Shown here piece by piece: positions 20,880-64,000 of a stretch of DNA of 64,000 nt. A program made the translations under genes and the position numbers. The stretch spans positions 480,190,001 through 480,254,000 of the forward strand of contig NW_027362764.1 in the NCBI RefSeq assembly GCF_046119375.1, read 5' to 3'. The notes beneath the pieces are model-generated. The model was given only the letters and a program-made list of their open reading frames with translations. It ran no database searches and was not told where the DNA came from. The stretch comes from Phyllobates terribilis (lineage: Eukaryota). Numbering within the stretch: position 1 is the stretch's first letter; each line of letters opens with the position of its first letter.

Positions 20880-21313
20880 TATATTCCTACTATACACTTT
20901 GTAAAACCAAACCTTCTTGTCACACTCTCAACATAATGCCCAAGAATAACCAAAAAAGAGAATTAAAAGAACAGACAGATTAGATAGGAGTGTTATGGAT
21001 CCGGGTGGTGGAACCTCTGTGCTGCGGTGCAAGGAGGGACCCAGAGGGGCGTAACTAAGTATCAACTCGGACCGACCTAGGTCGTTCGGCGGCTAACGAC
21101 TCCGTGACCAAGGAGGGACCGAGCAGAGGGACCAGATGCTACTCTGGGGACGACCTTGTAAGAGAGAAGGTGACTCCCACGGGTCAGATGGCTGGGACTG
21201 ACCGATACTGCAGATGGGCACAGCAGGCAGGCTGACGAGAGATCCGGGTAGATGAACTGGCAGAGACAGCAGGCGACAGGCAGGAGCCTCTAGGTAGGCT
21301 GTCAGGTGGTCAA

Positions 21314-21589
21314 GGCAAGTGACAGGCAGGAGCCTCCAGGTAGGCAGACAGGTGGTCACGGCAAGTGACAGGCAGGAGCCTCTAGGTAGGCTGTCAGGTG
21401 GTCACGGCAAGTGATGGGCAGGAGCCTCCAGGTAGGCAGAGAGGTGGTCACGGCAAGTGACAGGCAGGAGCCTCTAGGTAGGCTGTCAGGTGGTCACGAC
21501 AAATGACGGGCAGGAGCCTCCAGGTAGGCAGACAAGTGGTCACGGCAAGTGACAGACAGGAGCCTCCAGGTAGGCAGACAGGTGGTCAC
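21314..21589. repeat. 46-bp tandem repeat inside element A LTRs (6 copies here, 4 copies at 34891-35074)
   Basis: Unit GGCAAGTGACAGGCAGGAGCCTC(C/T)AGGTAGGC(AGA/TGT)CAGGTGGTCAC. Confidence 0.92.
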
Positions 21590-22249
21590 TAGTGTTGAGC
21601 GAGCACTAAAATGCTCGGGTGCTCGAAGCTCGGGCCGAGCTCGCCGTGATACTCGGGTGCTCGACCCGAGCAACGAGCCCAATGTTAGTCTATGGGAGAC
21701 TCGAGCATTTTTGCGGTGGCACCCCCGGCAGTCTTTAAAAAGCCTAACAAGTGCCCAAAACGATAGTGACAGTGCTCAAATGACATGGGGACAGCATGGG
21801 GATCGCCCCAGGAAGCATTTCTGACCCCCAGGTCACTGCTGTCAACAACGTGGTCAGAGGTAGTAAGCCACTTTTACAGGCTCACAATAAAACGAAAGTG
21901 AAACTTTTTTCCTGTGAAATATGTTAAGGAACATCCTTTCCAGGGAAAAGACTTGTGTATAAGTTAAAATAAATGACCAAAAACAAAAATACTCCTCCAC
22001 ACCTTCGGCTATGTTCACAAGTGGCATTTTTTATGCGTTTTTGCACTTTTGTATTGCGTTCAACTATGACAAATGCATTCACCGGGAAATGTCATTTTAA
22101 CATTTTACAACCTTATCTGGCCATGTGCTGTGTGACACATGCATAAAGTGCTGAAAAGACATGGGAACAGCATGGGGAAGACCCCTGGAAGCATCTCTGA
22201 CTCCCAGCTCACTGTCTAAAAGTGTGCCCATCATAAGTGATCCTTGCCG

Positions 22250-23650
22250 CATCAGAAGATGCAGACTTGCAACTATCCCCATGCAAGTTCTAGTCCCAGG
22301 GCAGTGTTCAATTGTACCTCCCCCATTCCTTGCAATACAAGCGCAAGTATGCAGCCTGCCACCCACCCACCCCCAGGCTGCAATACCATACTGCTTGCTT
22401 GAACTTGAAATTGGGCCTTTTAGGCATGTGGAGGCGGAATCTGGCCACCACGTCATGGCTGTGTTAGCGGCCTGGAATCCATACTCTGTCCCCAGCCGCC
22501 CGGCGGCCGGGTGTCCATACTCAGTCCCCAGCCGCCCCGCGGCCGAGTGTCCACACGGTCCCCAGCCGCCTGGGGGCAGTCGGGTGTCCATAAACGGTCC
22601 CCAGCCGCCTCCATTTCTCCTTGGAACATCCCCCCACACATTTTTCTTAGCCCGGCCTGCTTTAGGCAGCATTGGACGAGTCCACCAGAGAACCAGACTC
22701 CTCCGGTGGGCCCTGACTTCTCCATCGGTGGAGTTGAGAATGCCAAGGTGAGGAGCATAATGATGATGACAGAAGTTAGCATCTGCTATGTTTTCTTTTA
22801 ATGCAAGTGTAAGTGTGCAGCCTGCCACCCACCCACCCCCAGACTGCAATTCATACTGCTAGCTTGCACTTGAAATGGGGTCTTTTAGTTTAGAGGAGGC
22901 CGAAGCTGGCCACTACCTCATGGCTGCTTCGGCAGCGAGGTATCCATACTCAGTCCCCAGCCGCCCCTATTTGTCCTGGTGTGCCTTATACATAAGATTA
23001 AGTGTGTATACCAAAACATTACCTGTGCCCTCCCCAGTGCATTTAGTGGGAAGGAGAGCCTATTCCGCTGTAGTGTGTGCATGCCAAACCCCTGTTCATG
23101 GTACATGCGAAGATGCCTCCCACCTTGCACCTGTCATTGCAGACTTGCAACTATCCCCATTCAAGTCCTTGTCCCAGGGCAGTGTTCAATTGTACCTCTC
23201 CCATTCCTTGCAATGCAAGTGCAAGTATGCAGCCTGCCACCCACCCACCCCCAGGCTGCAATACCATACTGCTTGCTTGCTTTCACTTTAAATTGGGTCT
23301 TTTAGGCATGTGGAGGCGGAATCTGGCCACCACGCCATGGCTGTGTCGGCGGCCTGGTATCCATACTCAGTCCCCAGCCGCCTGGTGGCCGGGTGTCCCC
23401 GCTTGCTCCCCAGCCTCCAGGGGGTGGCCGGGTGTCCATACTCGGTCCCCAGCCACCCCTATTTGTACCGGTAACCTTTCCCACACTTTTCTTAGCCTGG
23501 CCTGCTTTAGGGCAGCATTGGCCGAGCCCACCGGACTATCAGACTCCTCCGGTGGGCCCTGGCTTCTCCATCAGGGGAGTTGAGAGTGCCAAGGTGAGGA
23601 GCATGATGAGGATGATAGAAGTTAGCATCTGCTTTGTTTTCAAGGAATGC
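22250..23650. repeat. Internal ~880-bp segmental duplication within hAT-1 (plus a partial third copy ~22800-22980)
   Basis: GCAGACTTGCAACTATCCCCA at 22261 and 23139; GCAGCCTGCCACCCACCCACCCCCAG at ~22350, 22815 and 23228. Confidence 0.85.
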
Positions 23651-24132
23651 AAGCGCATGTATGTAGTAGTGGCTAGGCCTGAGTTGGTAAGCGTTTTGGC
23701 GCATATCCTACCTCCTCCGAGGATTGCTGGATGTTTTCCTGCTACTATCCAAGTTCTATGACTCCCGTTAAAACAAAGCTTCAGGTGATAAATTATGGAT
23801 GAGGTGGTGGCAAAGGAGAAAGAGCAGGAGGAACAGGGACCAATCACATCAATATCAGGCCAGGCAACCACATATGTCTTGTAGGATATGTTTCTGTAAC
23901 AAAAGGAGCGGTTCGGCTACACAGTTATAGGGCATACAGTGAGTGCAATGCCTACCAAAAATTTCGAGGCACTCCAATGCCCCTTGGAAATGACATGGAG
24001 GTCAGAGGGCGTTAACTAAACCTTTTTTTCCATTTATAGCAACTGGGTCTCCTGTGCACTGTTGGCCTAAGCAGTGAATGGAATGCTTTCCAAAAATTAT
24101 GAGGTACTGCAATGCCCCTTATAAGAGCCATG

Positions 24133-25157
24133 TGTGGCACCCCAGGGGTCTGGTCACCACAGTAATAGAGATTACGTCGGAGAGCAAGTGGGAGGTTTCC
24201 TGGTCAGGATCCCTTAAACATGCAACATCCTCCTGCCCCAGTCCTGGGAGGGGAGAATTCTGCCCTTATAAACTGGATCTGGGGTGGGGTTGAGTGAGTC
24301 AGAGAACAGAGAACAGTCAGAGTCAGAGTGAGAGCAAGGGAAAGTAACAGCAAGGAGCTCTGTAGGAGCTAGGAGCTAAAGACGAGGGGCTGGAAGCTGA
24401 GCAGAGCTCGCCCTGGCAGAAGACAATAGGAACCGGACACAGGAGTCCGAAGCTGTGAGGACTTATATATCCAGCAGCAGAAACCAACCGGCAGGGGATT
24501 TCAGGTCCTCTGGCCATAGAAGCCCGGAGGCTCAGTCACAAGCAAGGGACCAGCACCGCCGTCGTGGAGCGGAGGCTAACAGAAGGCCCCAAGTCACCAG
24601 CCATACGGGTGAGCACTACACGGTACACTCAGGGACGTGGGCTACTTCTACCCGCTTACAGCAAGGTAGCCAGGAAGAGTGCAGACAGACGGGGAGGCCT
24701 ACAACTCCACCTGGCCAGGGGAACTCCTGCTTGCTCACAGACTGACCAGGCCTCTTATGCTAGCCAGTACTCCTGGGAGGGTCTACCTTATAATCATCAG
24801 TAAAGACCGTGAACTGCACTGCAAAGACTCTGAGTCATTCCTGCTGCGCTCGTGCACCATCACCCCCATCATCCACACTCACTGCCCTGAGGCTGTACTC
24901 CTCCCGAGGGGAGTTATCCCATTTTATGCTGCGCACACAACACCAGCCTCAGCGGTCAGCCTCGCAGCGGTGGTACTCCCTGACCGCAATCCACGGGTGG
25001 CGCAGTCGGACAATTAACCTCAAAACCTAAGAACGATTGCCACTGGTTTGACCAGCCTGAGCCACGGGACCGGGTCACCGCCACGGAGACTACAGACCCC
25101 AGAGACCCTTCACTGGGTATCCCACACACGTGTACACACGGCCCAGGGGGCGCGTCA
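24133..25157. mobile_element. Solo Gypsy-type LTR inside hAT-1
   Basis: TGTGGCACCCC...GGGGGCGCGTCA ends; 4-bp TSD CATG (24129-24132, 25158-25161); interrupts a ~132-bp tandem repeat whose intact copies read GAGCCATGCAGTAC. Confidence 0.85.
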
Positions 25158-25688
25158 CATGCAGTACAGCATATTACAAACATAAGTCCCATTATTGGGG
25201 AGTGGGTGTCCCATAGTATTTGCTTATGCCTTGCAAGCAAAAGCTGCCAAAAATTAGGACGGAGCAACTTGCAATGCCCCTTATAAGAGCCATGCAGTAC
25301 AGCATATTACAAACATAAGTCCCATTATTGGGGAGTGGGTCTCCCATAGTATTTGCTTATGCTTTCCCAGCAAAAGCTGCCAAAAATTAGGACGGAGCAA
25401 CTTGCAATGCCCCTTACAAGAGCCATGCAGTACAGCATATTACAAACATAAGTCCCATTATTGGGGAGAGGGTGTCCCATGGTATTTGCTTATGCTTTCC
25501 CAGCAAAAGCTGCCAAAAATTAGGACGGAGGAACTTGCAATGCTGGCACCCTGGTGGTATAGTGGTGGTGGAGGCTGAGGATAAGGAGAAGAAGATTAAA
25601 CAGCTGAAACGAGGAAGCGTATACCCATGTGTGGGTCTGAAGCGGTGCATGTGAATACACCTCCCGAAATAACACAGTGGATTTGACT

Positions 25689-28600
25689 TCATGTTACTCT
25701 GCTGTCATTTGGTGGTGATGAGAAGTCTGGCCCAATCCAGCCCTTGTTCATTTTGATAAGGGTCAGCTTGTCAGCATTGTCAGTTGACAGGCGAGTGCGC
25801 TTATCAGTTATAATTCCCCCAGCGGCACTAAAAACACGCTCCGATAACACGCTAGCGGCAGGGCAGGCCAGGACCTCCAAGGTGTACAGAGCGAGTTCAT
25901 TCCAAGTGTCCAGCTTGGATACCCAATAATTAAAAGGCACAGAGGAATCACGGAGGACGCTGGTACGATCGGCAAGGTACTCCCTCACCATCTTTTGAAA
26001 CTTTCCACTCCTTGTGAGAGTACCCCGCGCCTCAGGGCCTATAAGCTGGGCGGGTGTCAGAAAACTGTCCCAGAACGTTGACAGTGTTCCCCTGCCTCTG
26101 CTGGATTGGAGTTGCATCTCTCTCGCCTGTACGCCTTGGTTGGGCAATGAACTGCAGCAAGGGCCTTCTGGTATTGCCCCATTTTTGTAGACCTCTCCAC
26201 CTCAGGAAAAAGAGAGTGAAAGTTCTCCTTGTAGCGGGGGTCTACAAGTGTCACCAACCAGTAATGACTGTCACCCAACATTTTGACAACGCGAGGGTCA
26301 CGGTTAAGGCAGCGTAACATAAAGTCAGCCATGCGTGCCAGACTGGTAACGGGCAAGATTTCCGTGTCCTCACCAAGATGACGACTGACCATGCTCTCCT
26401 CCTCCTCCTCCTCTTCCTCCTCCCCCCTGTCCTCAGGCCACCCACGCTGAACCGACGATATGACACTTGTACAGGTACTACCGTCTACAACGCATGATAG
26501 CAGCTCCTGTTCTTCCTCCTCCTCCTCCTCCTCTCCCTCATTGTCCCCCAATGCATGTTGGGATGAGATGAGGCTGGGCTGTGTGTAATCGCCCGCTACG
26601 GCTTCTTGATTCATCTCATCATACTCTGGCTGCAATGCCTCCTCTTTAATTCTCTGCAGAGAGCGTTGCAAAAGACAGACAAGTGGGATGCTGACACTAA
26701 TGATGGCGTCATCGCCACTCACCATCTTGGTGGCCTCCTCAAAGTTTGTCAGGATGGTACATATGTCAGACATCCAGGTCCACTCCTGAGGTCTTATGTG
26801 TGGAGTCTGACCTGAATATCGACGGCCTTGTTGCAGCTGGTACTCCACAACTGCTCTCTTCTGCTCACAAATCCTTTGCAACATGTGGAGGGTAGAGTTC
26901 CAACGTGTGGGGACATCACACACCAGTCGGTGTGCCGGAAGCTGCAAACGCTGCTGCAACACAGCAAGGGTGGCGGAAGCTGTAGCCGACTTGCGAAAAT
27001 GAGCTGACAGGCGGCGTACTTTCACGAGCAGATCTGGCAACTCGGGGTACGATTTAAGAAACCGCTGAACCACGAGGTTAAGCACATGAGCCAGGCATGG
27101 TACGTGTGTGATCTCACCTCGCCTCAGAGCCGCCACCAGGTTACGGCCATTGTCACACACGACCATGCCGGGATGTAGGTTCAGCGGTCTCAGCCACAGA
27201 TCTGCCTGCTCTTTCACAGCTGTCCACAACTCACAAGCAGTGTGAGGTTTATCACCTAAGCTTATGAGTTTCAGCACAGCCTGTTGCCGCTTGGCGGAGG
27301 CAGTACTGCAATGCTTCCAGCTTGTAACTGATGTGGTGATATCTGAGATGGAGGCTGAACATGAGGAGGAGGAGGAGGAGGAGGATGCGCAGGAGCTGTA
27401 CACTGTGGGGGCAACTCTGACTGACATAGGGCCCGCAATCCTCAGTGTGGGGAGGATGTGTTCCGTCCCAAGGTCCGCCTGGGCCCTGGCTTCCACTATG
27501 TTTACCCAGTGTGCCGTCAGAGAGATGTACCGTCCCTGGCCACAAGCACTTGTCCACGTGTCCGTTGTCAGGTGGACTCTCCCAGTAACTGCGTTGTTGA
27601 GGGCACGGCAGATGCTTTGGGACACGTGCTTGTGTAGTGCGGGGATGGCACACCGGGCAAAATAGTGTCGGCTGGGGACCGAGTACCGAGGGACGGCCAC
27701 CGCCATAAGATTGCGGAAGTATTCCGTCTCCACCAGCCTAAAAGGCAGCATTTCCAATGCAAGCAGTCGTGAAATGTGCGAATTTAGGACTGTGGCCTGT
27801 GGGGCGTTAGCTGCGAATTTCCGCTTTCGTTCAAAGGTCTGGGATATGGACAATTGAACGCTGCGGTGGGACGTGGACGTGGACGTTGATGCTGTTTCTT
27901 GAGAAACTGCCATAACAAGTGAAGACTGAGAGGAGGGGGCATCTTTACATGCAGTATGGACAGGAGATTGCCTTGCACACACAACAGGGGGTTCTATTGC
28001 ACGCACAACAGTGGAAGAAGCAGTGGTGACACCCGCTGACACTGGTCGTGGACCCTGGGTTTCGCCCCACAAAGTCGGGTGCTTTGCTGCCATGTGCCTG
28101 ATCATGCTGGTGGTGATCAGGCTGGTAGTTTTGTCACCCTTGCTGATGCTGGCATGGCAGGTGGAACATATGGCCTTTTTGGGGTTATCAGCAGAGTCTT
28201 TAAAAAAATTCCAGACTCTGGAAGACCTACCGCTTGTACTGGCAACGTCCCTCGTGTTGTTGCTACGGGGAACGGTTGCCTGCCTTCTGTCTGTGGCCAC
28301 CACACTGCTTCTTCCTGCCTGTTGGGGTACTCTGCCTCCCTCCCCCTGTGTGCTGATGGCCTCACCCTGCATGTCCTCCTTCCACGTTGGGTCAGTTACT
28401 AGATCATCCACCACCTCCTCCTCTTCCACTTGCGCACCACGATCCTCCTCCTCACTTCCTGGCAATTGTGTCTCGTCATCGTCCACCTCTTGTGACAGAT
28501 TGCCAACGTCGACTTCCTGTGGCCGTGGCTGTTCAAATATTTGGGCATCGCAACATGGGATCTCCTCTTCCACCACTTCAAGCGTATCAGGCGAGGGGCC

Positions 28601-29008
28601 CAAATATGGAAATGGACCAGTGAACAGCTCTTCAGAGTGTCCAAGTGTGGGATCACTTGCTGTCTGACGACACTCGGCATGGTGGGAGGAAGGAGCATCA
28701 GGGTGAGGAGGAGTATGCAGTCGAGACTCATGGCTACTAAGAGTTGACCGTGTGGAAGACAGACCGGAGGTGGTGGTGCCCAGGTAACTGGAAGTATTGT
28801 CTGCTATCCAATTAATAACCTGTTCACACTGATCAGTTCGCAATACTTGTGTTGTAGCGTGCTTCCCTAGTAATTCGGTCAAGAAGTGGGAGCGAGAAGA
28901 TGTGGCTGTTGGTTGTGGCACATTTTCACCTTGGCCACGGCCCCGTCCTCTGCACGAACCATCACCAGAACGTCCATTTCCACGTCCCTTGCCACGCGCC
29001 TTGCCCAT
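25689..29008 (-). pseudogene. hAT (Ac-like) transposase of hAT-1, one frameshift near 26150
   Basis: BED finger (VWNFF...C..C...H...H), HLTTDTWTS, VCDNGRN, CLAHVLNL and TRWNST in the 26057-29008 frame; dimerisation domain CPAASVLSERVFSAAG in the 25689-26147 frame. Confidence 0.93.
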
Positions 29009-30223
29009 TGTAAATGAAGTAAAATAGCTTACACTTGCACTATCAATGGAAAAAGGGTAATAAAGAGTAGATTAGAACCGTGGAAGAGGAAAACCACAGT
29101 TATTGTTTACTGGGGTATACCACACTTTTTTAAATAGAGATATTTGCAGCTGAACAGTGAGCGACACACTCAAACTGCTTTTTTTTTAGATACCAAAGGC
29201 CCAAAACTGGATAGTACAGCGATTTGACCCGTGGAACTGCGAAACCACACTGGGATGTCGGGCCTACACAAGACTATTTTCAACAGATATATTTTTATGT
29301 CACAACAGTCAGGAGACACTACTGTTTTTCTTTACGGAAAAAACTACCAAAACCTGAATAATAGAGATTTTTTACCGTGGAACAGCAAAACCACAGTTAT
29401 AATTTACTGGTGTATACCAGGCTTTTTAAAATATATATATATTTGCGGCTGAACAGTGAGCAACACACTCAAACTGTTTTTTTTTAGATACAAATGGCCC
29501 AAAAGTGGATAATACAGAGGTTTGTACCGTGGAACTGCAAAACCACACTTGTATTTCTCGGGCCTATACCAGACTATTTTCAACAGATATATTTGTGTGT
29601 GAAAAATCAGGGAGACACTATTTTTTTTTTTTTACAGCAAAAAATGCAAAAAGCAGGATAATAGAGATTTTTTACCGTGGAACAGCAAAAGCACACTTCT
29701 GTCTCTCTGGCCTACACCAGACTATTTTCAACAGATATATTTGTGTCTCCTGCCCGAGTAACCCGGAAATGCTCGGTGCTCGCCGAACATCCCGAGTAGC
29801 GTGATGCTCGGGCGAGTATCGAGCAGTGTCGAGCATGTTCGCTCAACACTAGTGGTCACGGAAAGTGACGGTCAGGAGCCTCCAGGTAGGCTGACAGGTA
29901 ACAGGCAGGTGCTTCCAGGTAAGCAGGCGGGCAAAGCCCATAGACAGACTGCCGGACTGAACGGAAGACAGACTGTCGGGCTGAAGAGTAGTCAGGCTGG
30001 CGGACTGGACTGATAGTCAGGCTGGCGGGCAGGACTAGTAGTCAGGCTAGCAGTGGGACCTGAGGGCTGAAGCAGAGGTAAGTACACTGTACATCAACTA
30101 TTGCTCCGACACCTCCATATTGGAGGAGGTGCTTTATATATGGGAGGACCTCCGGCAATTGGCCGGGGACTCCTTAGGGCGGCGCACGCGGCCCCTTTAA
30201 GAGGGAGGGAGCGCGCTCGCGCC

Positions 30224-33200
30224 CTAAGCACAGTGCCCGGGAATCAGCGCGCGCCGGCAGAAGCAGGAAGAGGAGCGCTGGAGGACGTCGGGCGGGGAGC
30301 GCGGCGGTGAGAGGGACGGCGTCTCTACCTGGCAGGGGGCAGAGACGCCGATGCTACAGTACCCCCCCTTACGCCCCCTCTTTTTTAGGCCAAAAAGAAA
30401 ATTTTCAAGGAGAAGCGGGGCATGAATGTTCTCCCTGGGTTCCCAAGTTCTCTCCTCTGGGCCAAACCCCTTCCAATCCACCAGAAAAAAGGTTTTTCCT
30501 CTTACCGTCTTGGTGGTCAGAATGTTCTCTACCTCAAAAAGGTCCTCAGCGGAAACTGGAGCAGGGGGAGTACCTGGACTGTTGGAAAAAGAATTAAACA
30601 CAACTGGTTTGAGGAGAGATACGTGGAAGGAGTTGGGAATCAGTAAGGTGGCCGGGAGTTTTAACTTGTAGGCCACTGGGTTGATTGGTTTCAGGACTTC
30701 AAATGGACCGATGAACCAAGGACCCAATTTGTAAGAGGGTATTTTGAGCCGAACATGTTTGGAGGAGAGCCAAACCTTGTCTCCTGGACGGAATTAAGGC
30801 GGATCCAGACGTCTCTTGTCAGCATATCTCTTCATCCGCTCGGAGGACTGAAGAAGTGCGGACCTAGTGTTTTCCCAAATGGTGGAAAATTCGCAGACCA
30901 GAGACTCCACGGCAGGGTTGTCCACGGAAGTGGAGACGGGAAACGGAATCCGGGGATGTTGACCATAGTCTACAAAGAACGGGGACTTGGAAGTCGATTC
31001 GCTCTCATGGTTGTTGTAGGAGAATTCGGCCCATGGTAGGAGGTTCACCCAATCGGTATGGTGAGCATTAACAAAGTGCCGGATGTAGCTGGTAAGGATC
31101 TGGTTGATACGCTCCACTTGGCCATTGGACTGTGGATGGTAAGCGGAAGAGAAATCCAGGGTGACATCCAGCAGTTTACACATAGCTCTCCAGAAGCATG
31201 AGGTGAATTGAACCCCTCGATCCGACACAATGTGGAGGGGTAGGCCATGGAGACGGAAGATGTGAAAGAAGAAGTCCTTAGCCGGCTCTGATGCGGACGG
31301 GAGACCAGGCAGAGGGATGAAGTGGGCCATTTTAGAAAAGCGGTCGGCGACCACCCAAATGACTGTACAGCCGGCAGAAACAGGGAGATCTGTAATAAAG
31401 TTCATAGCAATGTGTTGCCAAGGGGCAGCAGGTACGGGAAGAGGCAGGAGGTGACCGGCTGGAAGATGTCTGGGAACTTTGTTGCGGGCACAAGATGAAC
31501 AGGCCGCAACGAAGTCTACCACATCCTTGCGCAGGGTAGGCCACCAGTAATGCCGGGTAATGAGCAGGAAAGTTTTCTTTTGACCAGCATGGCCGGCTAG
31601 TTTAGATGAATGACCCCAGTGAAGAATCTTCTGCCGATCTGGAACCGTTACAAACATCTTACCGGGTGGGAGACGAGTCAGATCTAAGGGGGCCACATTC
31701 ATCACTTTGGAGGGGTCGATGATGTGCATAGGCTCCTCCTCTAGATCGGCGGACAGGAAGGATTGGGACAAGGCGTCAGCTTTAACATTCTTGTCCGCCG
31801 GGCGGAAATGTAGGATAAAGTCGAAGCGAGCGAAGAACAAAGACCACCGGGCCTGACGCGGATTGAGTCTTTGGGCATTCTGGAGATATGCAAGGTTTTT
31901 GTGATCAGTATAGATGATCACTGGGTATAGAGCCCCTTCAAGCAGGTAACGCCACTCCTCCAGCGCCAATTTGAGGGCTAGCAGTTCTCGGTCTCCTATG
32001 GAGTAGTTGCGCTCAGACGAGGAGAAGAGTTTGGAGAAGAAGCCGCAGGTTACCATTCTCCCGGATGAAGATCTTTGGGTGAGCACCGCTCCGGCTCCGG
32101 AGGAGGAAGCATCAACCTCCAGGAAGAACTGTTTGCTGCAGTCCGGACGGTGCAGCACTGGGGCAGAGGAGAAGGCTTGCTTTAAGGAAAGGAAGGCCTC
32201 CTCAGCTTCGGGCGGCCATACCTTGGGATTTTCTCCCTTACGGGTGAGCGCAGAGATAGGAGCAGTCCGGAAAGAGAAGTGCGGGAAGAAGAGACGGTAG
32301 TAGTTGGCGAAGCCCAGGAATCGCTGAATCGCCTTCAACCCCTCCGGACGGGGCCACTTTAAGACGGAAGAGAGCTTCTCGGGGTCCATTCTTAGACCTG
32401 TCTGGGAGATAATATAGCCCAGGAATGGAAGGGAGGTCTGTTCGAAGAGGCACTTCTCAAATTTGGCATAGAGGTGATTCTGCCTGAGCCTAAGCAGGAC
32501 CTGACGAACATCCCTCTGGTGTGTGGGATGGTCCGGAGAGAAGACCAAGACGTCATCCAGGTACACCACCACACAGGAATATAGAAGGTCACCGAAGATG
32601 TCATTGACTAATTCTTGGAAGACGGCGGGAGCATTACAGAGAACGAAGGGCATCACACGGTATTCATAGTGACCGTCCCAGGTATTGAATGCCGTCTTCC
32701 ACTCGTCTCCTTGACGGATCCGGACCAGGTTATACGCCCCACGTAGATCCAGCTTGGAAAAGATCCTGGCGCCCTTAAGGCGGTCAAACAACTTGGAGAT
32801 GAGCGGCAGGGGGTATTTGTTTTTGACCGTGATTTGATTGAGTCCTCTATAGTCAATACAGGGGCGTAGCGAGCCATCCTTCTTCTTGGCGAAGAAGAAT
32901 CCGGCTCCAGCCGGGGAGGTAGATTTCCGGATGAATCCCCTAGCCAGATTCTCCTTAATGTACTCCGACATGGCCCGGGTTTCGGCCGACGACAACGGGT
33001 AAATACGCCCACGGAGTGGAGTGGCTCCGGGTACCAGGTTGATCGGGCAATCATATGGCCTATGAGGTGGCAGTGTCTCTGCTTCCTTTTTGTCGAAGAC
33101 ATCTGCATAGGACCAGTAAGGTGCCGGTAAACCGGGTAGATTAGCCGGGGTGGGTGGAGGATGAACCGGGCGGACCGGGACCAGACAGGTCTTATGGCAA

Positions 33201-33613
33201 TCCTGCCCCCAACGGAGAACTTCACTGGATTGCCAATTCAGCACAGGTTCATGTTTCTGAAGCCAGGGTAGACATAGCAATAGGGAGTGAGAGAGACCGG
33301 AAAGCACATGGAAGAAGATCCTCTCAGAGTGCAGCATTCCCACCTGCAGGGTTATAGGTTCAGTGACGAGCAGGATGGTCACCGGAAGAAGTCTTCCATC
33401 CACAGAGGCGACTGCCAATGGTTCAGCCAGAGGTTTGGTGGGAATGTGATATTTCTCTACCAGGGACTGGGAAATGAGGTTCCCAGCAGCTCCAGAATCT
33501 AGGTGTGCAATTTCAAAGTAGCGGTTCTCTCCCCAGGAGATGGAGACAGACAAAGTCAGGGAAGGAAAGGGTTTACTTTTGCCTAGGATGACCTCTCCGA
33601 GTGTCCAAGACAC
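30224..33613 (-). pseudogene. Element A pol (protease-RT-RNase H-integrase-chromodomain)
   Basis: LDSGAAGN, YLDDVL, VDASSSG, SDRGVQF and GQVERINQ; chromodomain FEVENIL...FLVDWKGFGPEERTWEP. One in-frame TAA at 30794-30796; the frame runs on into the 3' LTR. Confidence 0.95.
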
Positions 33614-34554
33614 TGGCGTTTCCCGGCTTCACCGGGCAGGAACGGATGAAGTGCTCCTTACAGCCACAGTAGAAACAGCTCCCCTCGGCTCGGCGTGACT
33701 CTTGGCGAGATTTGACCATCTTGGTCTGGTCGACCTGCATGGGTTTGGGCGAGCGTGTCCGGGGAGTTGCTATTTGAGAGGCAGGTCTCTGGAAAGTAGG
33801 AGCAAGACGAGGAAATCTTCGCTCCCGGGTAGTCTCTTTAGCACGTTCCAGGAAACGGATGTCAATCCGGGTAGCTAGCGACACCAGGTCATCCAGGGTG
33901 GTAGAAATGTCCCGGCCGGCTAACTCGTCCTTAATCCGACCGGAAAGGCCCTCCCAGAATATGGACACCACGGCCTCGTTGTCCCAGGCAAGCTCAGAAG
34001 CGAGGGTACGGAACCGTATGGCATATTGGCCCACGGTGAAACTCCCTTGGCGGATACGAAGTAGAGAGAAGGCAGTAGAGGATTTTCGTCCTGGTTCATC
34101 GAAGACTTTCCGGAAAGCAACGAGGAAAGACGATAGATCAGACACCAGGGGATCCCCTCTCTCCCACAGGGGATTTAGCCATGCCAGTGCTTCTCCAGTG
34201 AGGTGAGATACGATGAACGCCACCTTGGCCCTGTCGGAGGGAAACTGATGTGCCAAAAGTTCAAAGTTCAGGATGCACTGGTTTATGAAACCCCGAGCTA
34301 GAGCGGGGTCACCTCCAAAATGAGGAGGTGCAGAAAGCCGGGGACCTGGGTTGGATGCCGTGGTATTGGTGGGCAGCGGCGCTGCCGGAGCGGGAGTCGC
34401 ACGACTCGAGGCGGACACAGGTGGTACAGACAGCGTGTCCAGTCGAGTGTTGACAGACCGCAGGTAGGTCAGGATGGTTCCTGTTGGGATCTCTGACAAG
34501 AAACCTCCTGGTACAGGTCAGCAAGCGAAGGAGCCTGGGGCCACCGGGTTCCAT
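33573..34554 (-). pseudogene. Element A gag (PEG10/sushi-like capsid plus CCHC knuckle)
   Basis: FGGDP...KVAFIVSHLTGEALAW...LRIRQG; CFYCGCKEHFIRSC. The probable ATG at 34554 is out of frame with the main ORF (N-terminal frameshift). Confidence 0.9.
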
Positions 34555-34555
34555 G

Positions 34556-34565
34556 GTCGGAGCAA
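34556..34565 (-). other. Self-priming PBS of element A (TTGCTCCGAC)
   Basis: 2 nt inside the 5' LTR with no TGG tRNA match; complementary to GTCGGAGCAA, which lies 30 nt downstream of the LTR TATA box (30101-30110; one mismatch at 35316-35325). Confidence 0.8.
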
Positions 34566-35743
34566 ACTGTTACGGATCCGGGTGGTGGAACCTCTGTGCT
34601 GCGGTGCAAGGAGGGACCCAGAGGGGCGTAACTAAGTATCAACTCGGACCGACCTAGGTCGTACGGCGGCTAACGACTCCGTGACCAGGGAGGGACCAAG
34701 CAGAGGGACCAGGTGCTACTCTGGGGACGACCTTGCAAGAGAGCAGGTGACTCCCACGGGTCAGATGGCTGGGACTGACCGATACTGCAGATGGGCACAG
34801 CAGGCAGGCTGACGAGAGATCCGGGTAGATGAACTGGCAGAGACAGCAGGCGACAGGCGGGAGCCTCTAGGTAGGCTGTCAGGTGGTCACGGCAAGTGAT
34901 GGGCAGGAGCCTCCAGGTAGGCAGACAGGTGGTCACGGCAAGTGACAGGCGGGAGCCTCTAGGTAGGCTGTCAGGTGGTCACGGCAAGTGATGGGCAGGA
35001 GCCTCCAGGTAGGCAGACAGATGGTCACGGCAAGTGACAGGCAGGAGCCTCCAGGTAGGCAGACAGGTGGTCACGGAAAGTGACGGGCAGGAGCCTCCAG
35101 GTAGGCTGACAGGTAACAGGCAGGTGCTTCCAGGAAAGCAGGCGGGCAAAGCCCATAGACAGACTGGGGGACTGAACGGAAGACAGACTGTCGGGCTGAA
35201 GAGTAGTCACCCTGGCGGACTGGACTGATAGTCAGGCTGGCGGGCATGACAAGTAGTCAGGCTAGCAGCGGGACCTGAGGGCTGAAGCAGAGGTAAGTAC
35301 ACTGTACATCAACTATTGCTCTGACACCTCGATATTGGAGGAGGTGCTTTATATATGGGAGGACCTCCGGCAATTGGCCAGGGACTCCTTAGGGTGGCGC
35401 GCGCGGCCCCTTTAAGAGGGAGGGAGAGCGCGCCCTAAGCACAGTGCCCGGGAAGCAGCGCGCACCGGCAGAAGCAGGAAGAGGAGCGCTGAAGGACATT
35501 GGGCGGGGAGCGCGGCGGTGAGAGGGACGGCGTCTCTGCCTGGCAGGGGGCAGAGACGACAATGCTACAGGAGTATATAGGGAAAAAACCAAGCAATGTG
35601 AACTGAGGTCTAAGATGGTACACATGCAAGAAATAGGAGCATGTTCACACTAGCAAAAAGATGCAAAACCTACAAAAGACAAAAAATATCTCATACCCTA
35701 CCATCATTATATATAAATGTAAAGCAAAGTTGCATATGAAATA

Positions 35744-35827
35744 TAGGGTACTTAGTGAACTATTTTTGATCAAAAAAAGTATACAAGCCGTCCCACCAGC
35801 GACAAGGTGACCCTAAGTTGGGACGGT
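35744..35827 (-). ncRNA. Predicted HDV/CPEB3-like self-cleaving ribozyme, copy 1
   Basis: P1 CCGUCCC/GGGACGG, P2 UAGGGU/ACCCUA, P3 ACC/GGU, L3 UUGUCGCU, P1.1 G-C plus U.U, P4 hairpin, J4/2 CUAAG (candidate catalytic C at 35755). Confidence 0.65.
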
Positions 35828-36172
35828 CCTACACTGTCTATATTAAAAACCTTACTGTATATCAAAGTTGAAGTAATGCATATAAAAGGGTAGACAAATA
35901 GAACCGGGTCCCAATATCAGACCACCTAAGCCTGTGGTAAGCTACATATATACTAACCAGCTCAACAAGGGGGATGCCACACCCCTAATTTGCACAGAAT
36001 GCAAACAAGACAAAAAAACAAGCAATGTGAACTGAGGTCTAAGATGGTACACATGCAAGAAATAGGAGCATGTTCACACTAGCAAAAAGATGCAAAACCT
36101 ACAAAAGACAAAAAATATCTCATACCCTACCATCATTATATATAAATGTAAAGCAAAGTTGCATATGAAATA

Positions 36173-36256
36173 TAGGGTACTTAGTGAACTATTTTTGATC
36201 AAAAAAAGTATACAAGCCGTCCCACCAGCGACAAGGTGACCCTAAATTGGGACGGT
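36173..36256 (-). ncRNA. Predicted HDV-like ribozyme, copy 2
   Basis: Same helices as copy 1. Confidence 0.65.
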
Positions 36257-36601
36257 CCTACACTGTCTATATTAAAAAAATTATTGTATATCAAAGTTGA
36301 AGTAATGCATATAAAAGGGTAGACAAATAGAACCGGGTCCCAATATCAGACTACCTAAGCCCGTGGTAAGCTACATATATACTAACCAGCTCAACAAGGG
36401 GGATGCCACACCCCTAATTTGCACAGAATGCAAACAAGACAAAAAACCAAGCAATGAGAACTGAGGTCTAAGATGGTACACATGCAAGAAATAGGAGCAT
36501 GTTCACACTAGCAAAAAGATGCAAAGCCTACAAAAGACAAAAAATATCTCATACCCTACCATCATTATATATAAATGTAAAGCAAAGTTGCATATGAAAT
36601 A

Positions 36602-36685
36602 TAGGGTACTTAGTGAACTATTTTTGATCAAAAAAAGTATACAAGCCGTCCCACCAGCGACAAGGTGACCCTAAATTGGGACGGT
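36602..36685 (-). ncRNA. Predicted HDV-like ribozyme, copy 3
   Basis: Same helices as copy 1. Confidence 0.65.
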
Positions 36686-37030
36686 CCTACACTGTCTATA
36701 TTAAAAAAATTATTGTATATCAAAGTTGAAGTAATGCATATAAAAGGGTAGACAAATAGAACCGGGTCCCAATATCAGACTACCTAAGCCCGTGGTAAGC
36801 TACATATATACTAACCAGCTCAACAAGGGGGATGCCACACCCCTAATTTGCACAGAATGCAAACAAGACAAAAAACCAAGCAATGAGAACTGAGGTCTAA
36901 GATGGTACACATGCAAGAAATAGGAGCATGTTCACACTAGCAAAAAGATGCAAAGCCTACAAAAGACAAAAAATATCTCATACCCTACCATCATTATATA
37001 TAAATGTAAAGCAAAGTTGCATATGAAATA

Positions 37031-37114
37031 TAGGGTACTTAGTGAACTATTTTTGATCAAAAAAAGTATACAAGCCGTCCCACCAGCGACAAGGTGACCC
37101 TAAATTGGGACGGT
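37031..37114 (-). ncRNA. Predicted HDV-like ribozyme, copy 4
   Basis: Same helices as copy 1. Confidence 0.65.
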
Positions 37115-37459
37115 CCTACACTGTCTATATTAAAAACCTTACTGTATATCAAAGTTGAAGTAATGCATATAAAAGGGTAGACAAATAGAACCGGGTCCCA
37201 ATATCAGACCACCTAAGCCCGTGGTAAGCTGCATATATACTAACCAGCTCAACAAGGGGGATGCCACACCCCTAATTTGCACAGAATGCAAACAAGACAA
37301 AAAACCAAGCAATGAGAACTGAGGTCTAAGATGGTACACATGCAAGAAATAGGAGCATGTTCACACTAGCAAAAAGATGCAAAGCCTACAAAAGACAAAA
37401 AATATCTCATACCCTACCATCATTATATATAAATGTAAAGAAAAGTTGCATATGAAATA

Positions 37460-37543
37460 TAGGGTACTTAGTGAACTATTTTTGATCAAAAAAAGTATAC
37501 AAGCCGTCCCACCAGCGACAAGGTGACCCTAAATTGGGACAGT
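37460..37543 (-). ncRNA. Predicted HDV-like ribozyme, copy 5
   Basis: Same fold; one P1 C-G pair becomes U.G (plus-strand G>A at 37541). Confidence 0.6.
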
Positions 37544-37888
37544 CCTACACTGTCTATATTAAAAACCTTACTGTATATCAAAGTTGAAGTAATGCATATA
37601 AAAGGGTAGACAAATAGAACCGGGTCCCAATATCAGACTACCTAAGCCCGTGGTAAGCTACATATATACTAACCAGCTCAACAAGGGGGATGCCACACCC
37701 CTAATTTGCACAGAATGCAAACAAGACAAAAAACCAAGCAATGTGAACTGAGGTCTAAGATGGTACACATGCAAGAAATAGGAGCATGTTCACACTAGTA
37801 AAAAGATGCAAAACCTACAAAAGACAAAAAATATCTCATACCCTACCATCATTATATATAAATGTAAAGCAAAGTTGCATATGAAATA

Positions 37889-37972
37889 TAGGGTACTTAG
37901 TGAACTATTTTTGATCAAAAAAAGTATACAAGCCGTCCCTGCAGCGACAAGGTGACCCTAAATTGGGACGGT
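37889..37972 (-). ncRNA. Predicted HDV-like ribozyme, copy 6, P3 disrupted
   Basis: Plus-strand CCACCAGC becomes CCTGCAGC, changing the P3 3' strand from GGU to GCA. Confidence 0.45.
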
Positions 37973-38437
37973 CCTACACTGTCTATATTAAAAACCTTAC
38001 TGTATATCAAAGTTGAAGTAATGCAGGAGTATATAGGGTTAGGAGGATACATTCACTGTGAAGTGTACTGTGAAGTTGTATGTAGATGTCACTGCAGCTC
38101 TGGATGTGACTGGAGTATAAGACATGATGTTAGAGCAGAATAGTGACTACAGCTCTGGATGTGACTGAAGCTTTTCCTGTGCTGTGATCTCCCCTACATC
38201 TGCCTCTTGCATTCACTTGGTGTATTCTTTAACTACACACTGCTCCCCTAACCCCACTTTTATTTATGACCTCCTTGTTTATTCTGCCCTGAATGTCCAA
38301 CATCTGGCTCCACATTAATCAACTGACCAAGATGAGCACAGGCCACTCCTCTCTGGTTCACACCTGAATGCATTCTGTAGTAAATAAATTGTGAACTACT
38401 TATCTGCAATGACTTTAGTCTGCGTCCATCATCCTAA

Positions 38438-39332: not shown

Positions 39333-41074
39333 TGATGCGCCCAGGGGATGGGGACGACTTGGCGCCCGGGCCTTGTTGCCTGGTCTTGGGGATGTCGCGG
39401 TGGTCGGCTCCCGGGCCCATACCCTGGGCCTCTCTTTAAAAGGGTGGATAATTATGTGAAAGTTCGTGACGCCACCCGTGGTGTCTGGTGAAGACCACCA
39501 GCGCTGCTGCAGTCCTCTGAGGCCGGTGATCAGGCAGCTAGATGGTGTGGCTCCCCACAGGTGGAGCAGGGCCTCAGGGCAGCGTAGAAGGGGGGGGTAC
39601 AGCACAGAGGGGACCCAGCCGGGTCGGAGGAAGAATAGGCACACACACGATAGTTCACTTCAATACCTTTACTGGTGGTGTTTCAGGCACGATCCAGGGC
39701 ACTGTAGGGTGAAGGGTGCATTTCAGGACTCTCCCCAGTGAGCGGGTGTGGGGCCTCCTGTTCTTTGCCTTTCCTTAATAAGTTTCTGACCTGCCTGGAG
39801 CTAGGCCTAACTTTGTATCTGTCTTGCATCTGCTGATCCCGGTGATAGGGCCTTCTATTGGAGTTCACACTCCCTGGTTTCTGGGGTTTTGGTAACTCCT
39901 GACCCTGGTACATTGTCAGCGCTTGGGTTAACCTGGGACATATAGTTCGCCAGGGGTTCTGGTGGTTTCTGCTGGTCCTAGAGATCCTTGCAGACATGGA
40001 CCCGGTGTCCGGTATATGGTCTTGGGGTGAGCTGGCTAAGCTCCTCTGCCCCCTATGTAGCTCGCTACTCCACTTGCCTTCAGCCACGCTCGGGCCCTCA
40101 CTAGGCTACACCCAGCAGTAGGCCTCGCTACTCTTCACCGCTCTTATGGCGTCGGCACGCCTTGGGCTCACTAACCTGAGCTCTCTGAGTCTGGACTGTG
40201 CTCCACTGCAGGATGGCTTCTGCAGGAGCTCCTCTCAACAGGCTTCCTTCTACAGACTGGATTCTCACAGACTGGAACTAGCTCTGTCCCCTGAGGAAAC
40301 TGGACTTCAGACTTACTCCAGACTCCAGACCAGACTGACTGCCTGGCTCCACCTTCCCTATTTATATCCTTAACGGGCTCCCTCTGGTGGTCTGAGGTGG
40401 AAGGTGGAGGTGTGTGTATGCTGTGGGGGCCTCTTGTGGAGGAATCCGTCCATGCACCCCTCTAGGATCTGTGGCACTAATGCGCAGCAGGGCGCCACAT
40501 TCCCCCCTAGCAAAGCTCAGTACTCCCGGACTGAAGTACTTTTTATAACAACAATAACAATAACTCTTCCCTTTATGGGAGGCACTTTGCTTAAACGTTA
40601 CATATAAAACAGTATAAATAATAAATAGATATGTTCATATAATAAGCAACCCCAGAATTCAAGTCTCTTGCGGTGAGGTTCCCTGACAGGATGTCCATCT
40701 CACAGGGTAGAGTACTTGGTAGCTTGAGGGACCTGTCCCAAACCCTCCACGTAGGCCCTGGGGTGGCTGCAGGGCATGGAGATCCTGAGTTGGACCTCCG
40801 TTAGTGCCACGCCAGACAGGTTTTTCTTCTGAGGTCACCTAAAGGGGCACTCCAGGGAGTGCAATTATTTACAAGAAGCAGTTTTTGGGCTACACATAGT
40901 CCTCAGCCACAGAGTTCTTTAAGTACCCTAATGGGTAGTTAGAGGCAAACAAGAAAAGTGTCCATATCACTTAGATTGTCCATTAGAAGGCAAAACACAA
41001 GTTAATAAATACATATATGAAAATACACAATATAATACCCCAGGGGCAACTATCTACACTGTCAGAGTTTCACT

Positions 41075-56701: not shown

Positions 56702-57868
56702 GGAAAGAGATGATGCGCCCTGGGGATGGGGACGACTCGGCGCCCGGGCCTTGTTTCCTGGTCTTGGGGATGTCGCGGTGGTCGGCTCCCGGGCCCGTAC
56801 CCTGGGCCTCTCTTTAAAAGGGTGGATAATTATGTGAAAGTTCGTGACGCCACCCGTGGTGTCTGGTGAAGACCACCAGCGCTGCTGCAGTCCTCTGAGG
56901 CCGGTGATCAGGCAGCTAGATGGTGTGGCTCCCCACAGGTGGAGCAGGGCCTCAGGGCAGCATAGAAGGGGGGGATGCAGGACAGAGGGGACCCAGCCGG
57001 GTCGGAGGAAGAATAGGCACACACACGATAGTTCACTTCAGTACCTTTACTGGTGGTGTTTCAGGCACGATCCAGGGCACTGTAGGGTGAAGGGTGCATT
57101 TCAGGACTCTTCCCAGTGAGCGGGTGTGGGGCCTCCTGTTCTTTGCCTTTCCTTAATAAGTTTCTGACCTGCCTGGAGCTAGGCCTAACTTTGTCTCTGT
57201 CTTGCATCTGCTGATCCCGGTGATAGGGCCTTCTGTTGGAATTCACACTCCCTGGTTTCTGGGGTTTTGGTAACTCCTGACCCTGGTACGTTGTCAGCGC
57301 TTGGGTTAACCTGAGACATATAGTTCGCCAGGGGTTCCGGTCGTTTCTGCTGGTCCTAGAGATCCTTGCAGACATGGACCCGTTGTCCGGTATATGGTCT
57401 TGGGGTAAGCTGGCTAAGCTCCTCTGCCCCCTATGTAACTCGCTACTCCACTTGCCTTCGGCCACGCTCGGGCCCTCACTAGGCTACACACAGCAGTAGG
57501 CCTCGCTACTCTTCACCGCTCTTATGGCGTCGGCACACCTTGGGCTCACTAACCTGAGCTCTCTGAGTCTGGACTGTGCTCCACTGCAGGATGGCTTCTG
57601 CAGGAGCTCCTCTGAACAGGCTTCCTTCTACAGACTGGATTCTCACAGACTGGAACTAGCTCTGTCCCCTGAGGAAACTGGACTTCAGAATTACTCCAGA
57701 CTCCAGACCAGACTGACTGCCTGGCTCCACCTTCCCTATTTATATCCCTAACGGGCTCCCTCTGGTGGTCTGAGGTGGAAGGTGGAGGTGTGTGTATGCT
57801 GTGGGGGCCTCTTGTGGGGGATCCATCCATGCACCCCTCTAGGATCTAATGCGCAGCAGGGCGCCACA

Positions 57869-58310
57869 CTCCTCAATAAATCTATGACCTAGTCTCCCAG
57901 TACATACCTGCACGCAACCTCCGATCCTCACAAGATCTCCTTCTCTACTCCCCTCTTATCTCCTCTTCCCACAATCGCATACAAGATTTCTCCGTGCATC
58001 CATCCTACTTTGGAACTCTCTACCCCAATATATCAGGTTCTCGCCTACCGTGGAAACCTTCAAAAGGAACCTGAAGACCCACCTCTTCCGACAAGCCTAC
58101 AACCTGCAGTAACCACCGTTCCACCATACCGCTGCATGACCAGATCTACCCTAACCTACTGTATCCTCACCCATCCCTTGTAGACTGTGAGCCCTCGCGG
58201 GCAGACCTTCTCTCCTCCTGTTGCCTTCACGTTTTGCTATGTATACCCCTTTTTCACATGTAAAGCGCCATGGTATAAATGGCGCTATAATAATAAATAA
58301 TAATAATAAG
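57869..58310 (+). mobile_element. L2 LINE 3' end (right part)
   Basis: ..LVSQYIPARNLRSSQDLLL...LWNSLP...FKRNLKTHLFRQAYNLQ*, then the 3' UTR and GTAAAGCGCCATGGTATAAATGGCGCTATA(ATAATAA)n tail. Confidence 0.88.
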
Positions 58311-59475: not shown

Positions 59476-59948
59476 GTGTACAGGAAAAAAAAAAATACTT
59501 ACCTCTCCTCGTTTCTTGCTGGCTGCAGCATTACCCCTCCTCAGTGTCACCATCTTCCCGCTCTCTGCCCTGTGATGCTCATAGCAGAGGGCACACTGTA
59601 GTGATGTCATTGCCCCCTCTGCCCTGAGACGTCACAAGTCAGTAGACGCAAAAGAAGCTGGAGCGGGAATGGGGAGAGGTAGGGGTCCCTGACGGCGAGT
59701 GGGCCCCCCCTGCTGGCTCAGGGCCCCGGTACTTGCGTGGGTGCACCGGGTGCTGACGCCGGTCCTGACTTGAGGGCACAGTATGGGGGCAGCATGGGGG
59801 AAAGTGTTAATCGGGGGCACAGTATGGAGAAGTGGCATAGTATGGAGGAGGGGCACAGTATGGAGGGATTATAGTGTGCAGGGGACAGTGTGGAGATAAA
59901 GACAGCATGAAATGGGAAAAGCGTGGGAGCCATTATTTCATAGGGGAG

Positions 59949-62900: not shown

Positions 62901-64000
62901 GGATCAGATTGTATGCGCCATGGAGATCAAGCTTGGTGAATATCTTTGAGCCTTTTAGGCGATCAAACATCTCGTAGATGAGAGGCAGAGGATACTTGTT
63001 TTTGATTAATTTAATTTGATTTAGACCCCTATAGTCAATACAAGGGCGAAGAGAGCCGTCCTTCTTCTTGATGAAGAAGAATCCTGCTCCAGCCGGAGAG
63101 GTGGATTTCTGGATAAATCCCCTAGCAAGATTCTCTTCAATGTACTCAGACATGGCACGGGTCTCGGCCAACAACAGTGGGTAGATTCGACCACAGGGAG
63201 GCGAGGCATCAGGAGCGAGGTCAATGGGACAGTCATACGGCCTATGAGGAGGTTGAGTCTCAGCCTCCTTGTCAAAGACACCACCGTAAGACCAGTAGGG
63301 TGCCGGCAAGTCAGGTAGATTAGCAGGAGTGGATGGAGGCGGGCAGAATGAAGAAGAACCAAGCAGGTCTTGTGACATTCCTGACCCCAGCAGAGCACTT
63401 CTTCCAAACTCCAATTTAAGACTTGTGTCTCCGAAGCCAAGGCAGTCCTAGCAGCAAAGGATGAGAGAGGCCGGACAATACTCACAAGGAGATTTCCTCC
63501 GAATGTAGCTTACCAGTCTGGAGAACTACGAACTTGGTGACAGACAAGATGAACTCGGAAAGGGACCTCCCATCTACAGAGGAGACTGCCAACAGATCCG
63601 GAAGATGTTGGCTAGGGATCTGATACTTCTCCACAATGGCTTGTTGGATGAGGTTTCCAGCAGCACCGGAGTCCAAATAAGCAGTCTCGAAAAAATGGAC
63701 GTTGCCACAGGAAACTGATACAGACAGAGATGGAGAGGAAGAATTCTTGCCCAGGACGGCCTCTCTCAGTTTCCCAGTCTCTCTGGACAGCAGCAGATCA
63801 CATGCTCCGAACTGCCAGAATAAAAGCATCTTCCCTCAGAGCGGCAGACCTCCTGGAGAGACTTGACCACCTTCACTTGATCCACCTGCATAGGTTCTAG
63901 GATAGATGCCAAGGCTGGGGCAGAGGTTTGTTGTGAAAGCGGCCTTTGGAAGGTAGGAGCAAGACGTAGAGGTCTCTTCTCACGGATCACCTCCTTAGAA
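59949..64000 (-). mobile_element. Second sushi-type chromoviral Gypsy (element C), degenerate, runs off the window
   Basis: 3' LTR 59949-60578 resembles element A LTR ends; PPT at ~60579-60600; frameshifted PR (LDSGAAGN), RT, RH, IN and chromodomain; gag end with GGGAAAC at 63769-63775. Confidence 0.92.

Follow-up and report, generated by a model that had tools for sequence, protein, structure and literature searches.

We describe a tandem array, and the repeat family to which it belongs, from a 64,000-nucleotide stretch of the Phyllobates terribilis genome (assembly GCF_046119375.1, contig NW_027362764.1, positions 480,190,001 to 480,254,000 of the forward strand). We call the whole stretch the window. 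On balance, we think that the array is one insertion of a family likely written by a borrowed Neptune-type Penelope-like element (PLE) protein, circling a 429-nt RNA released by a predicted ribozyme of the hepatitis delta virus (HDV) type. The parts of this reading differ in strength. That the repeat is a non-autonomous element mobilised by PLEs is very probable. A monomer circle probably served as template. We give an even chance to the proposal that HDV-like self-cleavage, as modelled, produces that circle.

Repeat detection places the array at 35583-38025, with a period of 429 bp, 5.7 copies, and 98% matches. The RNA strand would be the minus strand. Once circularised, the unit has no open reading frame (ORF) above 57 codons in any frame, and so is non-coding. 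The array is flanked by GGAGTATATAGGG, with copies at 35570 and 38026. Thus, the near-identical units and flanking target-site duplication (TSD), both proposed in an initial annotation made from the DNA alone, are real. That annotation had removed a neighbouring Gypsy-type element to extend the flanking match. This is unnecessary, as the 14-mer AGGAGTATATAGGG is present at both 35569 and 38025 in the sequence as it stands. The left TSD is at 35569..35582 and the right TSD at 38025..38038 (plus strand). Note that the first A of the left copy doubles as the terminal base of the Gypsy long terminal repeat (LTR), and the first A of the right copy belongs to the unit as well. The longest exact flanking match reaches 15 nt (CAGGAGTATATAGGG) because the terminal CA of the LTR and the last CA of the unit both fit.

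The family is abundant. A 19-mer taken from the unit matches the 10.6-Gb genome exactly at 19,007 places, and its reversed control matches nowhere. In other words, a non-coding tandem repeat some hundreds of base pairs long is dispersed over many loci. Subfamilies of the A type have unit lengths of 429, 431, 432, and 438/439 bp. Families B and C are older relatives, at 65-72% identity; one pattern has 1004 matches, and there are 5355 first-look candidates for family C. Related sequence is also found in contigs from four sequencing runs with several organism labels, and these contigs give no strand, ends or level. Loci were drawn from 39 stretches around top matches and from a further 29, chiefly the earliest positions on contig C1. 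Nine same-flank duplicates, and stretches without both ends, were dropped. This left 52 scored loci, including the window array. Unit coordinates (q) are counted from window base 36013.

The 52 loci supply 72 RNA-3' ends, taking the minus strand as RNA. Half (36) are at site 1 (q1-14), 34 are at site 2 (q66-90), and 2 are elsewhere. The two sites lie 78 nt apart and each is a short U tract after GG. In the window, site 1 (RNA ...UUGGUUUUUU) is at 35583..35590 on the minus strand, and would be where reverse transcription (RT) of this insertion started. Site 2 (RNA ...UAGGUUUUGCA; 35655..35672, minus strand) occurs at 35662, 36091, 36520, 36949, 37378, and 37807, and none of these serves as an outer end. 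The 78 nt between the fixed ends (35583..35661, minus strand) corresponds to a PLE-type ‘tail’ and recurs in each unit. At the opposite end, insertions have either a variable terminus or an inverted second arm. Pairing is strict in the two-armed insertions: 20/20 combine a site-1 end with a site-2 end (p about 1e-6). The older related families have the same two ends.

The initial annotation stated that neither end falls at the predicted cleavage site. For the cut predicted here (35826|35827 and its repeats) this holds, but the left end is not arbitrary: it is one of the two family-wide fixed ends. Circularly permuted ends had also been anticipated. Instead, 70/72 RNA-3' ends fall at one or other of two fixed sites, and the 5' end alone varies. 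In the window array, the variable RNA-5' end (38022..38025, plus strand) corresponds to unit position 297 and lies 54 nt upstream of the predicted cut. It finishes on TGCA, possibly reflecting microhomology with the site-2 end. Ends on TGC(A) occur in 4/16 site-1 one-armed insertions (p 0.0015), a post hoc hint that includes one nested locus. Similarly, variable ends cluster immediately 3' of the fold described below, at unit positions 157-162 (5/30, p 0.013; post hoc and a hint only, from a list that omits L108, L112, and L114).

We counted TSDs at 45 of the 52 loci, excluding 7 that are interrupted or nested. Exact flanking repeats of at least 10 nt are present at 26/45 loci, compared to 9/1980 mismatched flank pairs used as a chance control. 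Lengths peak at 14-15 nt, and 20/45 loci have exact repeats of 14-16 nt without being LTR elements. In family C, TSDs have mostly decayed. Target-primed insertion with a long, locus-specific TSD, as first suggested, is hence supported.

Autonomous PLEs with the same insertion anatomy occur in this genome. Elements encoding GIY-YIG and RT domains are plentiful (4370 GIY-YIG candidates, 150 scored, 70 loci sampled). We presume that they belong to the Neptune clade, a name assigned from the C-terminal GIY-YIG domain and Cys-rich linker, rather than from a tree. Four of eight inverted PLE pairs show both a TSD (10, 13, 14, and 18 nt) and a tail of 83-93 nt on one arm only. The TSD and tail lengths of the repeat match those of autonomous PLEs; PLE machinery is therefore indicated. 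PLE insertions in the literature are 5'-truncated, come with an inverted copy, and carry a one-sided tail (PMC8557442). In vitro, a purified PLE protein cut and extended both DNA strands, and the same protein, a predicted dimer, starts RT at two internal RNA sites that define the tail (PMC11167929). Hence, fixed ends, which the initial annotation counted among the refuting outcomes, do not refute a circular template, because PLE RT starts at internal sites.

The repeat shares two-site fixed 3' ends, a one-end tail, 5' truncation, and an inverted arm with Neptune-type PLEs (PMC8557442) and with Poseidon of Anolis (PMC11167929). With PLEs of the same genome, it shares a TSD of ~14 bp and a tail of ~80 nt. 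Unlike PLEs, the repeat has no ORF and no hammerhead, and its 78-nt tail is longer than the 30-40 nt described for Penelope and Poseidon. MRC1 and other non-autonomous Chlamys PLEs are from green algae, and have similarity to the autonomous 3' end; an HDV-like ribozyme is unmentioned in the text consulted (PMC8557442). Some observations pull the other way. An exact TSD of at least 10 nt is missing in 19/45 family loci, and the other 4/8 PLE pairs yield no usable TSD (3 without a clear TSD and 1 without an inverted match). The unit has no homology to the 70 sampled PLE loci detectable by blastn with families A-C, our ribozyme model has no match in 67 of them, and no autonomous partner was found in this sample. 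Many sampled PLEs hold hammerhead-like motifs instead of an HDV-like fold. When 88 peptide pieces were compared with 128 family loci by tblastn, 26 matched; those checked (L106 and L133/L134) were on the opposite strand, 0.3-3.6 kb away.

The initial annotation proposed an RT of either LINE (long interspersed nuclear element) or Penelope type. The fixed ends and arms, seen also in PLEs, uphold the latter, while the former is not supported, given the absence of poly(A), the two start sites, and the two-armed palindromes. Instead of a single 3' end with a poly(A) or simple-repeat tail, there are two fixed ends in short U tracts, and the array continues in register. LINE-1 also gives long TSDs and 5' inversions, which favours mobilisation of a short interspersed nuclear element (SINE) by a LINE with twin priming. 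Yet, in contrast to twin priming, the sequences of the inverted arms overlap, and a second fixed site marks their end (20/20); this pairing of site 1 with site 2 largely refutes a LINE-mobilised SINE. A DNA rolling circle, of the extrachromosomal circular DNA or Helitron type, would be another route; Helitrons leave no TSD. An assembly artefact is countered by differences among the units and by the same anatomy in 52 loci. Taken as a group, these alternatives are very improbable, even though the literature reports HDV-like ribozymes from R2, RTE, Baggins, and L1Tc LINEs, with PLE repeats said to hold hammerheads (PMC6765202).

We now consider the template for a PLE-type insertion. Unit position 344 is C or T, and 28/29 arrays, counted with their inverted arms, hold a single allele. 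If the two long arrays are set aside, 26 of 27 are uniform, whereas permutation gives a mean of 7.3 and a maximum of 14 (10,000 permutations). Nine young arrays, of 3-16 units, deviate internally by 0.3% at most. Between loci, these arrays differ by 0-10 changes fixed in every unit, some of which are private to one locus (54A in all units of L105, 48G and 386T in L111, and 207A and 254T in L114). Clonal young arrays with private fixed changes imply a one-unit bottleneck, followed by re-amplification at insertion. A circle provides this bottleneck most simply, with transcripts of homogenised source arrays as the alternative. Furthermore, q241-250, around the predicted cut, has no indel in 188-189 unit passes, which argues against RT jumping between linear monomers. 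Variants mirrored between arms were also compared and gave no clear pattern. Through array clonality, repeated copying of a 429-nt monomer, as initially claimed, gains indirect support.

Note that clonality can also be obtained from transcripts of already homogenised source arrays, which counts against a circle. This is the basis of an unlikely, linear scenario: PLEs would have mobilised a repeat copied from long read-through transcripts of homogeneous source arrays, and the HDV-like fold would be a non-cleaving structure with a protein-binding or protective role. Consistent with this, a long source-like array exists on contig C8 (>32 kb), and in vitro a PLE protein used uncut RNA, the hammerhead being dispensable (PMC11167929). 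However, C8 units are rich in unit-specific variants, whereas young insertions are clonal with locus-private changes in every unit, as expected of a one-unit bottleneck. Nor was carried-over 5' flank seen between array and TSD, at junctions inspected by eye and left uncounted.

Unit number has changed after insertion. Loci with the same flanks differ in unit count (7 counted heads in L050 versus 4 in L063; L048 and L058 likewise). The variable unit number looked for in the initial annotation is supported. Block duplications are seen in L039, L050, L057, and the window array. In the latter, four variants are common to units 2-3 and two to units 3-5, for which two one-unit duplications and one recurrent change suffice. 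Probably, the RT product of the window array was ~3.7 units, with about two of the 5.7 units added later. Hence, the claim that all 5.7 units came from one RT run is not borne out. Older arrays clearly hold post-insertion duplications, and this is a point against the reading that we favour. Li et al. have published a model (bioRxiv 10.64898/2026.07.22.740005) in which PLE-type insertions of 1-2 units later grow by unequal crossing-over. The unit differences between same-flank loci, and the block duplications, suit this model. Conversely, the very young L103, L104, and L111, with TSDs intact, already have 3-7 near-identical units without shared partial substitutions. In addition, both arms exceed one unit in six two-armed insertions, and an in-register arm of more than one unit requires a circular or multimeric template at birth. 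We therefore consider local amplification quite improbable as the origin of the arrays.

How might a monomer circle arise? The minus strand at q243-162 can be read as a double pseudoknot resembling those of HDV and CPEB3 ribozymes, once per unit. The predicted parts are P1 (CCGUCCC/GGGACGG), P3 (ACC/GGU), L3 (UUGUCGCU), P1.1 (G22-C38 and U-U), P4, a CUAA linker, and P2. In unit 1, the fold spans 35745..35826 (minus strand, as for all units), with a predicted cut at 35826|35827 and the catalytic-C position at 35755. In unit 2 it spans 36174..36255, with a predicted cut at 36255|36256 and the catalytic-C position at 36184. Equivalent folds are at 36603..36684 (unit 3), 37032..37113 (unit 4), 37461..37542 (unit 5, with a U-G wobble in place of one P1 pair), and 37890..37971 (unit 6, P3 broken by two substitutions). 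A descriptor for HDV topology, composed after the motif was known and to be weighed accordingly, had one match on the minus strand, none on the plus strand, and none in 3000 shuffles.

The fold is retained in relatives of 65-72% identity. Across 19 copies, P1 is 94% paired, and two of its pairs have changed on both sides (CG 9/UA 7; AU 10/GC 4/GU 3/UA 1). Compensatory cells in P1 number 12, against 4.6 +/- 1.8 in shuffles. The nested arrangement of P1, P2, P3, P1.1, and P4 is present, with covariation confined to P1 and a P2 register that shifts between families. Where the P2 of families A and C has a bulge, that of family B gains one U in the 5' strand together with a matching A in the 3' strand. 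Core positions are kept in 53 family-C copies: U20 in 40, G22 in 49, G25 in 36, C38 in 40, C75 in 48, A77 in 50, and A78 in 53. These copies come from loci picked by whole-unit similarity, and G25 is a CpG site. Family C hence has U20 and G25 in L3, and a catalytic C followed by N-A-A. Retention of catalytic-core positions at 65-72% identity is a further point against the linear scenario above.

Features shared with HDV/CPEB3-like ribozymes (PMC4836649, PMC13635239) are a 7-bp P1, the P2 pseudoknot, a 3-bp P3, U20 and G25 in L3, a P1.1 of one Watson-Crick pair plus U-U, P4, and the C-N-A-A linker. For CPEB3, the key positions are U20, U21, C22, A23, G25, and U26, with one G-C and one U-U in P1.1 (PMC4836649); the corresponding L3 positions of family C read U U G A C G U. 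The unit differs in having C1-G37 at the cut site and a G22-C38 pair that is flipped against CPEB3. Other P1.1 pairs are tolerated in fast HDV ribozymes (PMC13635239). Unlike the ribozymes of R2, RTE, and L1Tc, which are at the LINE 5' end, the fold is inside a tandem unit and has no Rfam match.

Other results weigh against a working ribozyme. The preference of HDV ribozymes is for a +1 purine whose partner at the end of P1 is U or C. Here, +1 is not a purine: families A, B, and C all have C1-G37 as their cut-site pair (CG in 17/19; in family C, C in 42/53 and G in 47/53). Covarying pairs number 2, against a shuffle mean of 1.9, and 400/500 shuffles reach 2. Covariation is nil in P3 and P1.1. 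P2 is 74% paired in one register, and families A and C need a 1-nt bulge. Of the 19 copies, 15 were chosen by a pattern fixing part of P1, P2, and P3 (the 5' half), and the sequences are related. RNAalifold favours a pairing in which a conserved AGG upstream takes up the CUU that P1.1 requires, and in its lowest-energy fold the monomer is a rod burying the motif (z -2.6). As a speculation, both could equally stop a ligated circle from cutting again. Rfam found no ribozyme in 35400-36600 at E up to 10, giving one chance match. Just 1/30 variable ends is within 5 nt of the predicted cut. Finally, the RNA circle, its cleavage, and its expression are predictions from the DNA sequence. This, together with the possibility that C1-G37 and the competing pairings prevent cleavage, favours copying of linear transcripts. 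Our prediction is that the fold works like an HDV ribozyme, and we do not file it as a member of that class. In its most specific form, our reading is a retrozyme-like family in which an active flipped-core HDV-like ribozyme (C1-G37, G22-C38) has replaced the hammerhead, with a genome-encoded circle of 420-440 nt, and a dimeric Penelope RT priming both ends of a staggered 14-bp cut from two sites of one circle. This model remains tentative, and somewhat doubtful as a whole.

Retrozymes are the closest published parallel. No CUGANGA and no PLE-type variant core is present on either strand of the unit, and GAAA is absent from the RNA strand; each unit thus has no type I hammerhead. Twister, pistol, hatchet, and hairpin ribozymes were rejected by eye against their consensus, Rfam being the only tool applied. 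In the model for metazoan non-LTR retrozymes, a tandem transcript self-cleaves, monomers become circles, and a PLE RT makes tandem cDNA (PMC7229834, PMC7761336). Li et al. tie retrozymes to PLE pseudo-LTRs (pLTRs), and lean towards local amplification (bioRxiv 10.64898/2026.07.22.740005). Like the non-LTR retrozymes of these papers (PMC7229834; Li et al. 2026), the repeat forms dispersed multimers of non-coding units in the 150-450 bp range, with low GC and a long TSD. One ribozyme-like motif per unit, and a proposed circle, PLE RT, and rolling copying, are also common to both. However, retrozymes are defined by a type I hammerhead, while our unit has an HDV-like fold and no hammerhead core. 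In the text consulted, these papers do not describe paired two-site priming or array clonality. Our search of the open literature, which excluded subscription papers, repeat databases, and the supplementary family lists of Li et al., revealed no retrozyme or PLE for which an HDV-like ribozyme is reported. We would therefore describe the repeat as a non-autonomous, PLE-mobilised tandem element that is retrozyme-like, with a ribozyme type that would be new if the fold is active.

The reading that we favour can be set out as a series of steps. Arrays would be transcribed from the minus strand. The HDV-like fold is predicted to cleave once per unit, and a host ligase would circularise the monomers. 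Judging from insertion anatomy, the PLE protein would make a staggered cut of ~14 bp and use each DNA end as a primer on the RNA, one at site 1 and the other at site 2. Each cDNA may then run round the template and stop at a variable place. Joining would produce a one-armed or palindromic two-armed array with its TSD. Later, as the same-flank loci and shared variants show, unit number drifts through DNA-level duplication.

Additional observations concern the repeat family and its PLE relatives. On contig C8 (G000:C8:337033001-337065500; L125, L031, L032, and L126), the 429-bp unit forms a continuous array of at least 32 kb, with ends not reached. Unit variants recur in blocks, the element having turned satellite at that locus. 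In the young arrays L101 and L116, some units have a 7-nt duplication near site 2 and others do not (438/431 and 439/432 bp). A C-to-A change adjoining the site-1 A run recurs in 13 arrays. Both are possibly slippage hot spots. Families A-C keep three further motifs on the minus strand: GTAAGG upstream of the fold (window 36279-36285 region, each unit), a pyrimidine tract ending TAG|G at site 2 (36095-36105, each unit), and an AT-rich box then AGCT. The first two are possible splice sites around the ribozyme, and the box is a possible TATA box. GTAAGG is lost in units 2 and 3 of the window array. The pLTRs of ten sampled PLEs (L072, L073, L078, L086, L095, L171, L174, L177, L186, and L197) have hammerhead-like variants with a changed core, such as UGAAUAA or UUGGAUAAA, followed by GAAA-CGCG; their tail contains CAG|GTGAG.

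The array’s left neighbour is a separate, Gypsy-type LTR element (20991..35569, minus strand; TSD GGAG), which sits in the sequence of the left TSD copy. The initial annotation had Gypsy inserting after the array. We find no such indication: non-CpG divergence is 1.2% per LTR for Gypsy (15/634, halved) and 0.9% for the array (22/2381), and insertion of either element first gives an identical junction. Divergence does not separate the two orders either; if anything, Gypsy is the older. The left Gypsy LTR is interrupted by an 8.3-kb insertion (window 21590-29851) with an 8-bp TSD (GTGGTCAC) and terminal inverted repeats. Its 1003-aa frame (26057-29071, minus strand) encodes a BED zinc finger, and the insertion is a hAT-like DNA transposon. 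A more distant relative (~72%) of the Gypsy LTR and internal region is at window 59948-63966. Elsewhere in the window, direct repeats of 1.17 kb at 39333-40503 and 56711-57872 are 96.8% identical and are probably the LTRs of a second element. Palindromic or inverted-repeat elements resembling miniature inverted-repeat transposable elements are at 815-1011, 1180-2837, and 9818-10040 (a 200-bp palindrome; 286-bp inverted repeats at 96%).

Retrozyme screens rely on the hammerhead, and therefore a large family with an HDV motif would escape them. It has been speculated that HDV-like circles may arise from genomic retroelements carrying HDV ribozymes (PMC7761336), and the repeat family is a candidate for such an origin. 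The strict pairing of sites 1 and 2 provides a testable model for the unexplained tail and palindromes of PLEs. Moreover, young clonal arrays make it possible to decide whether arrays form by rolling-circle copying or by local amplification, a question that the current literature has not settled. Should a pyrimidine-purine cut-site pair prove active, the HDV ribozyme consensus would become wider. If the flipped-core ribozyme reading is true, an animal genome would encode a protein-free RNA circle of the HDV-like kind, and rolling-circle reverse transcription would have direct support from genomic sequence.

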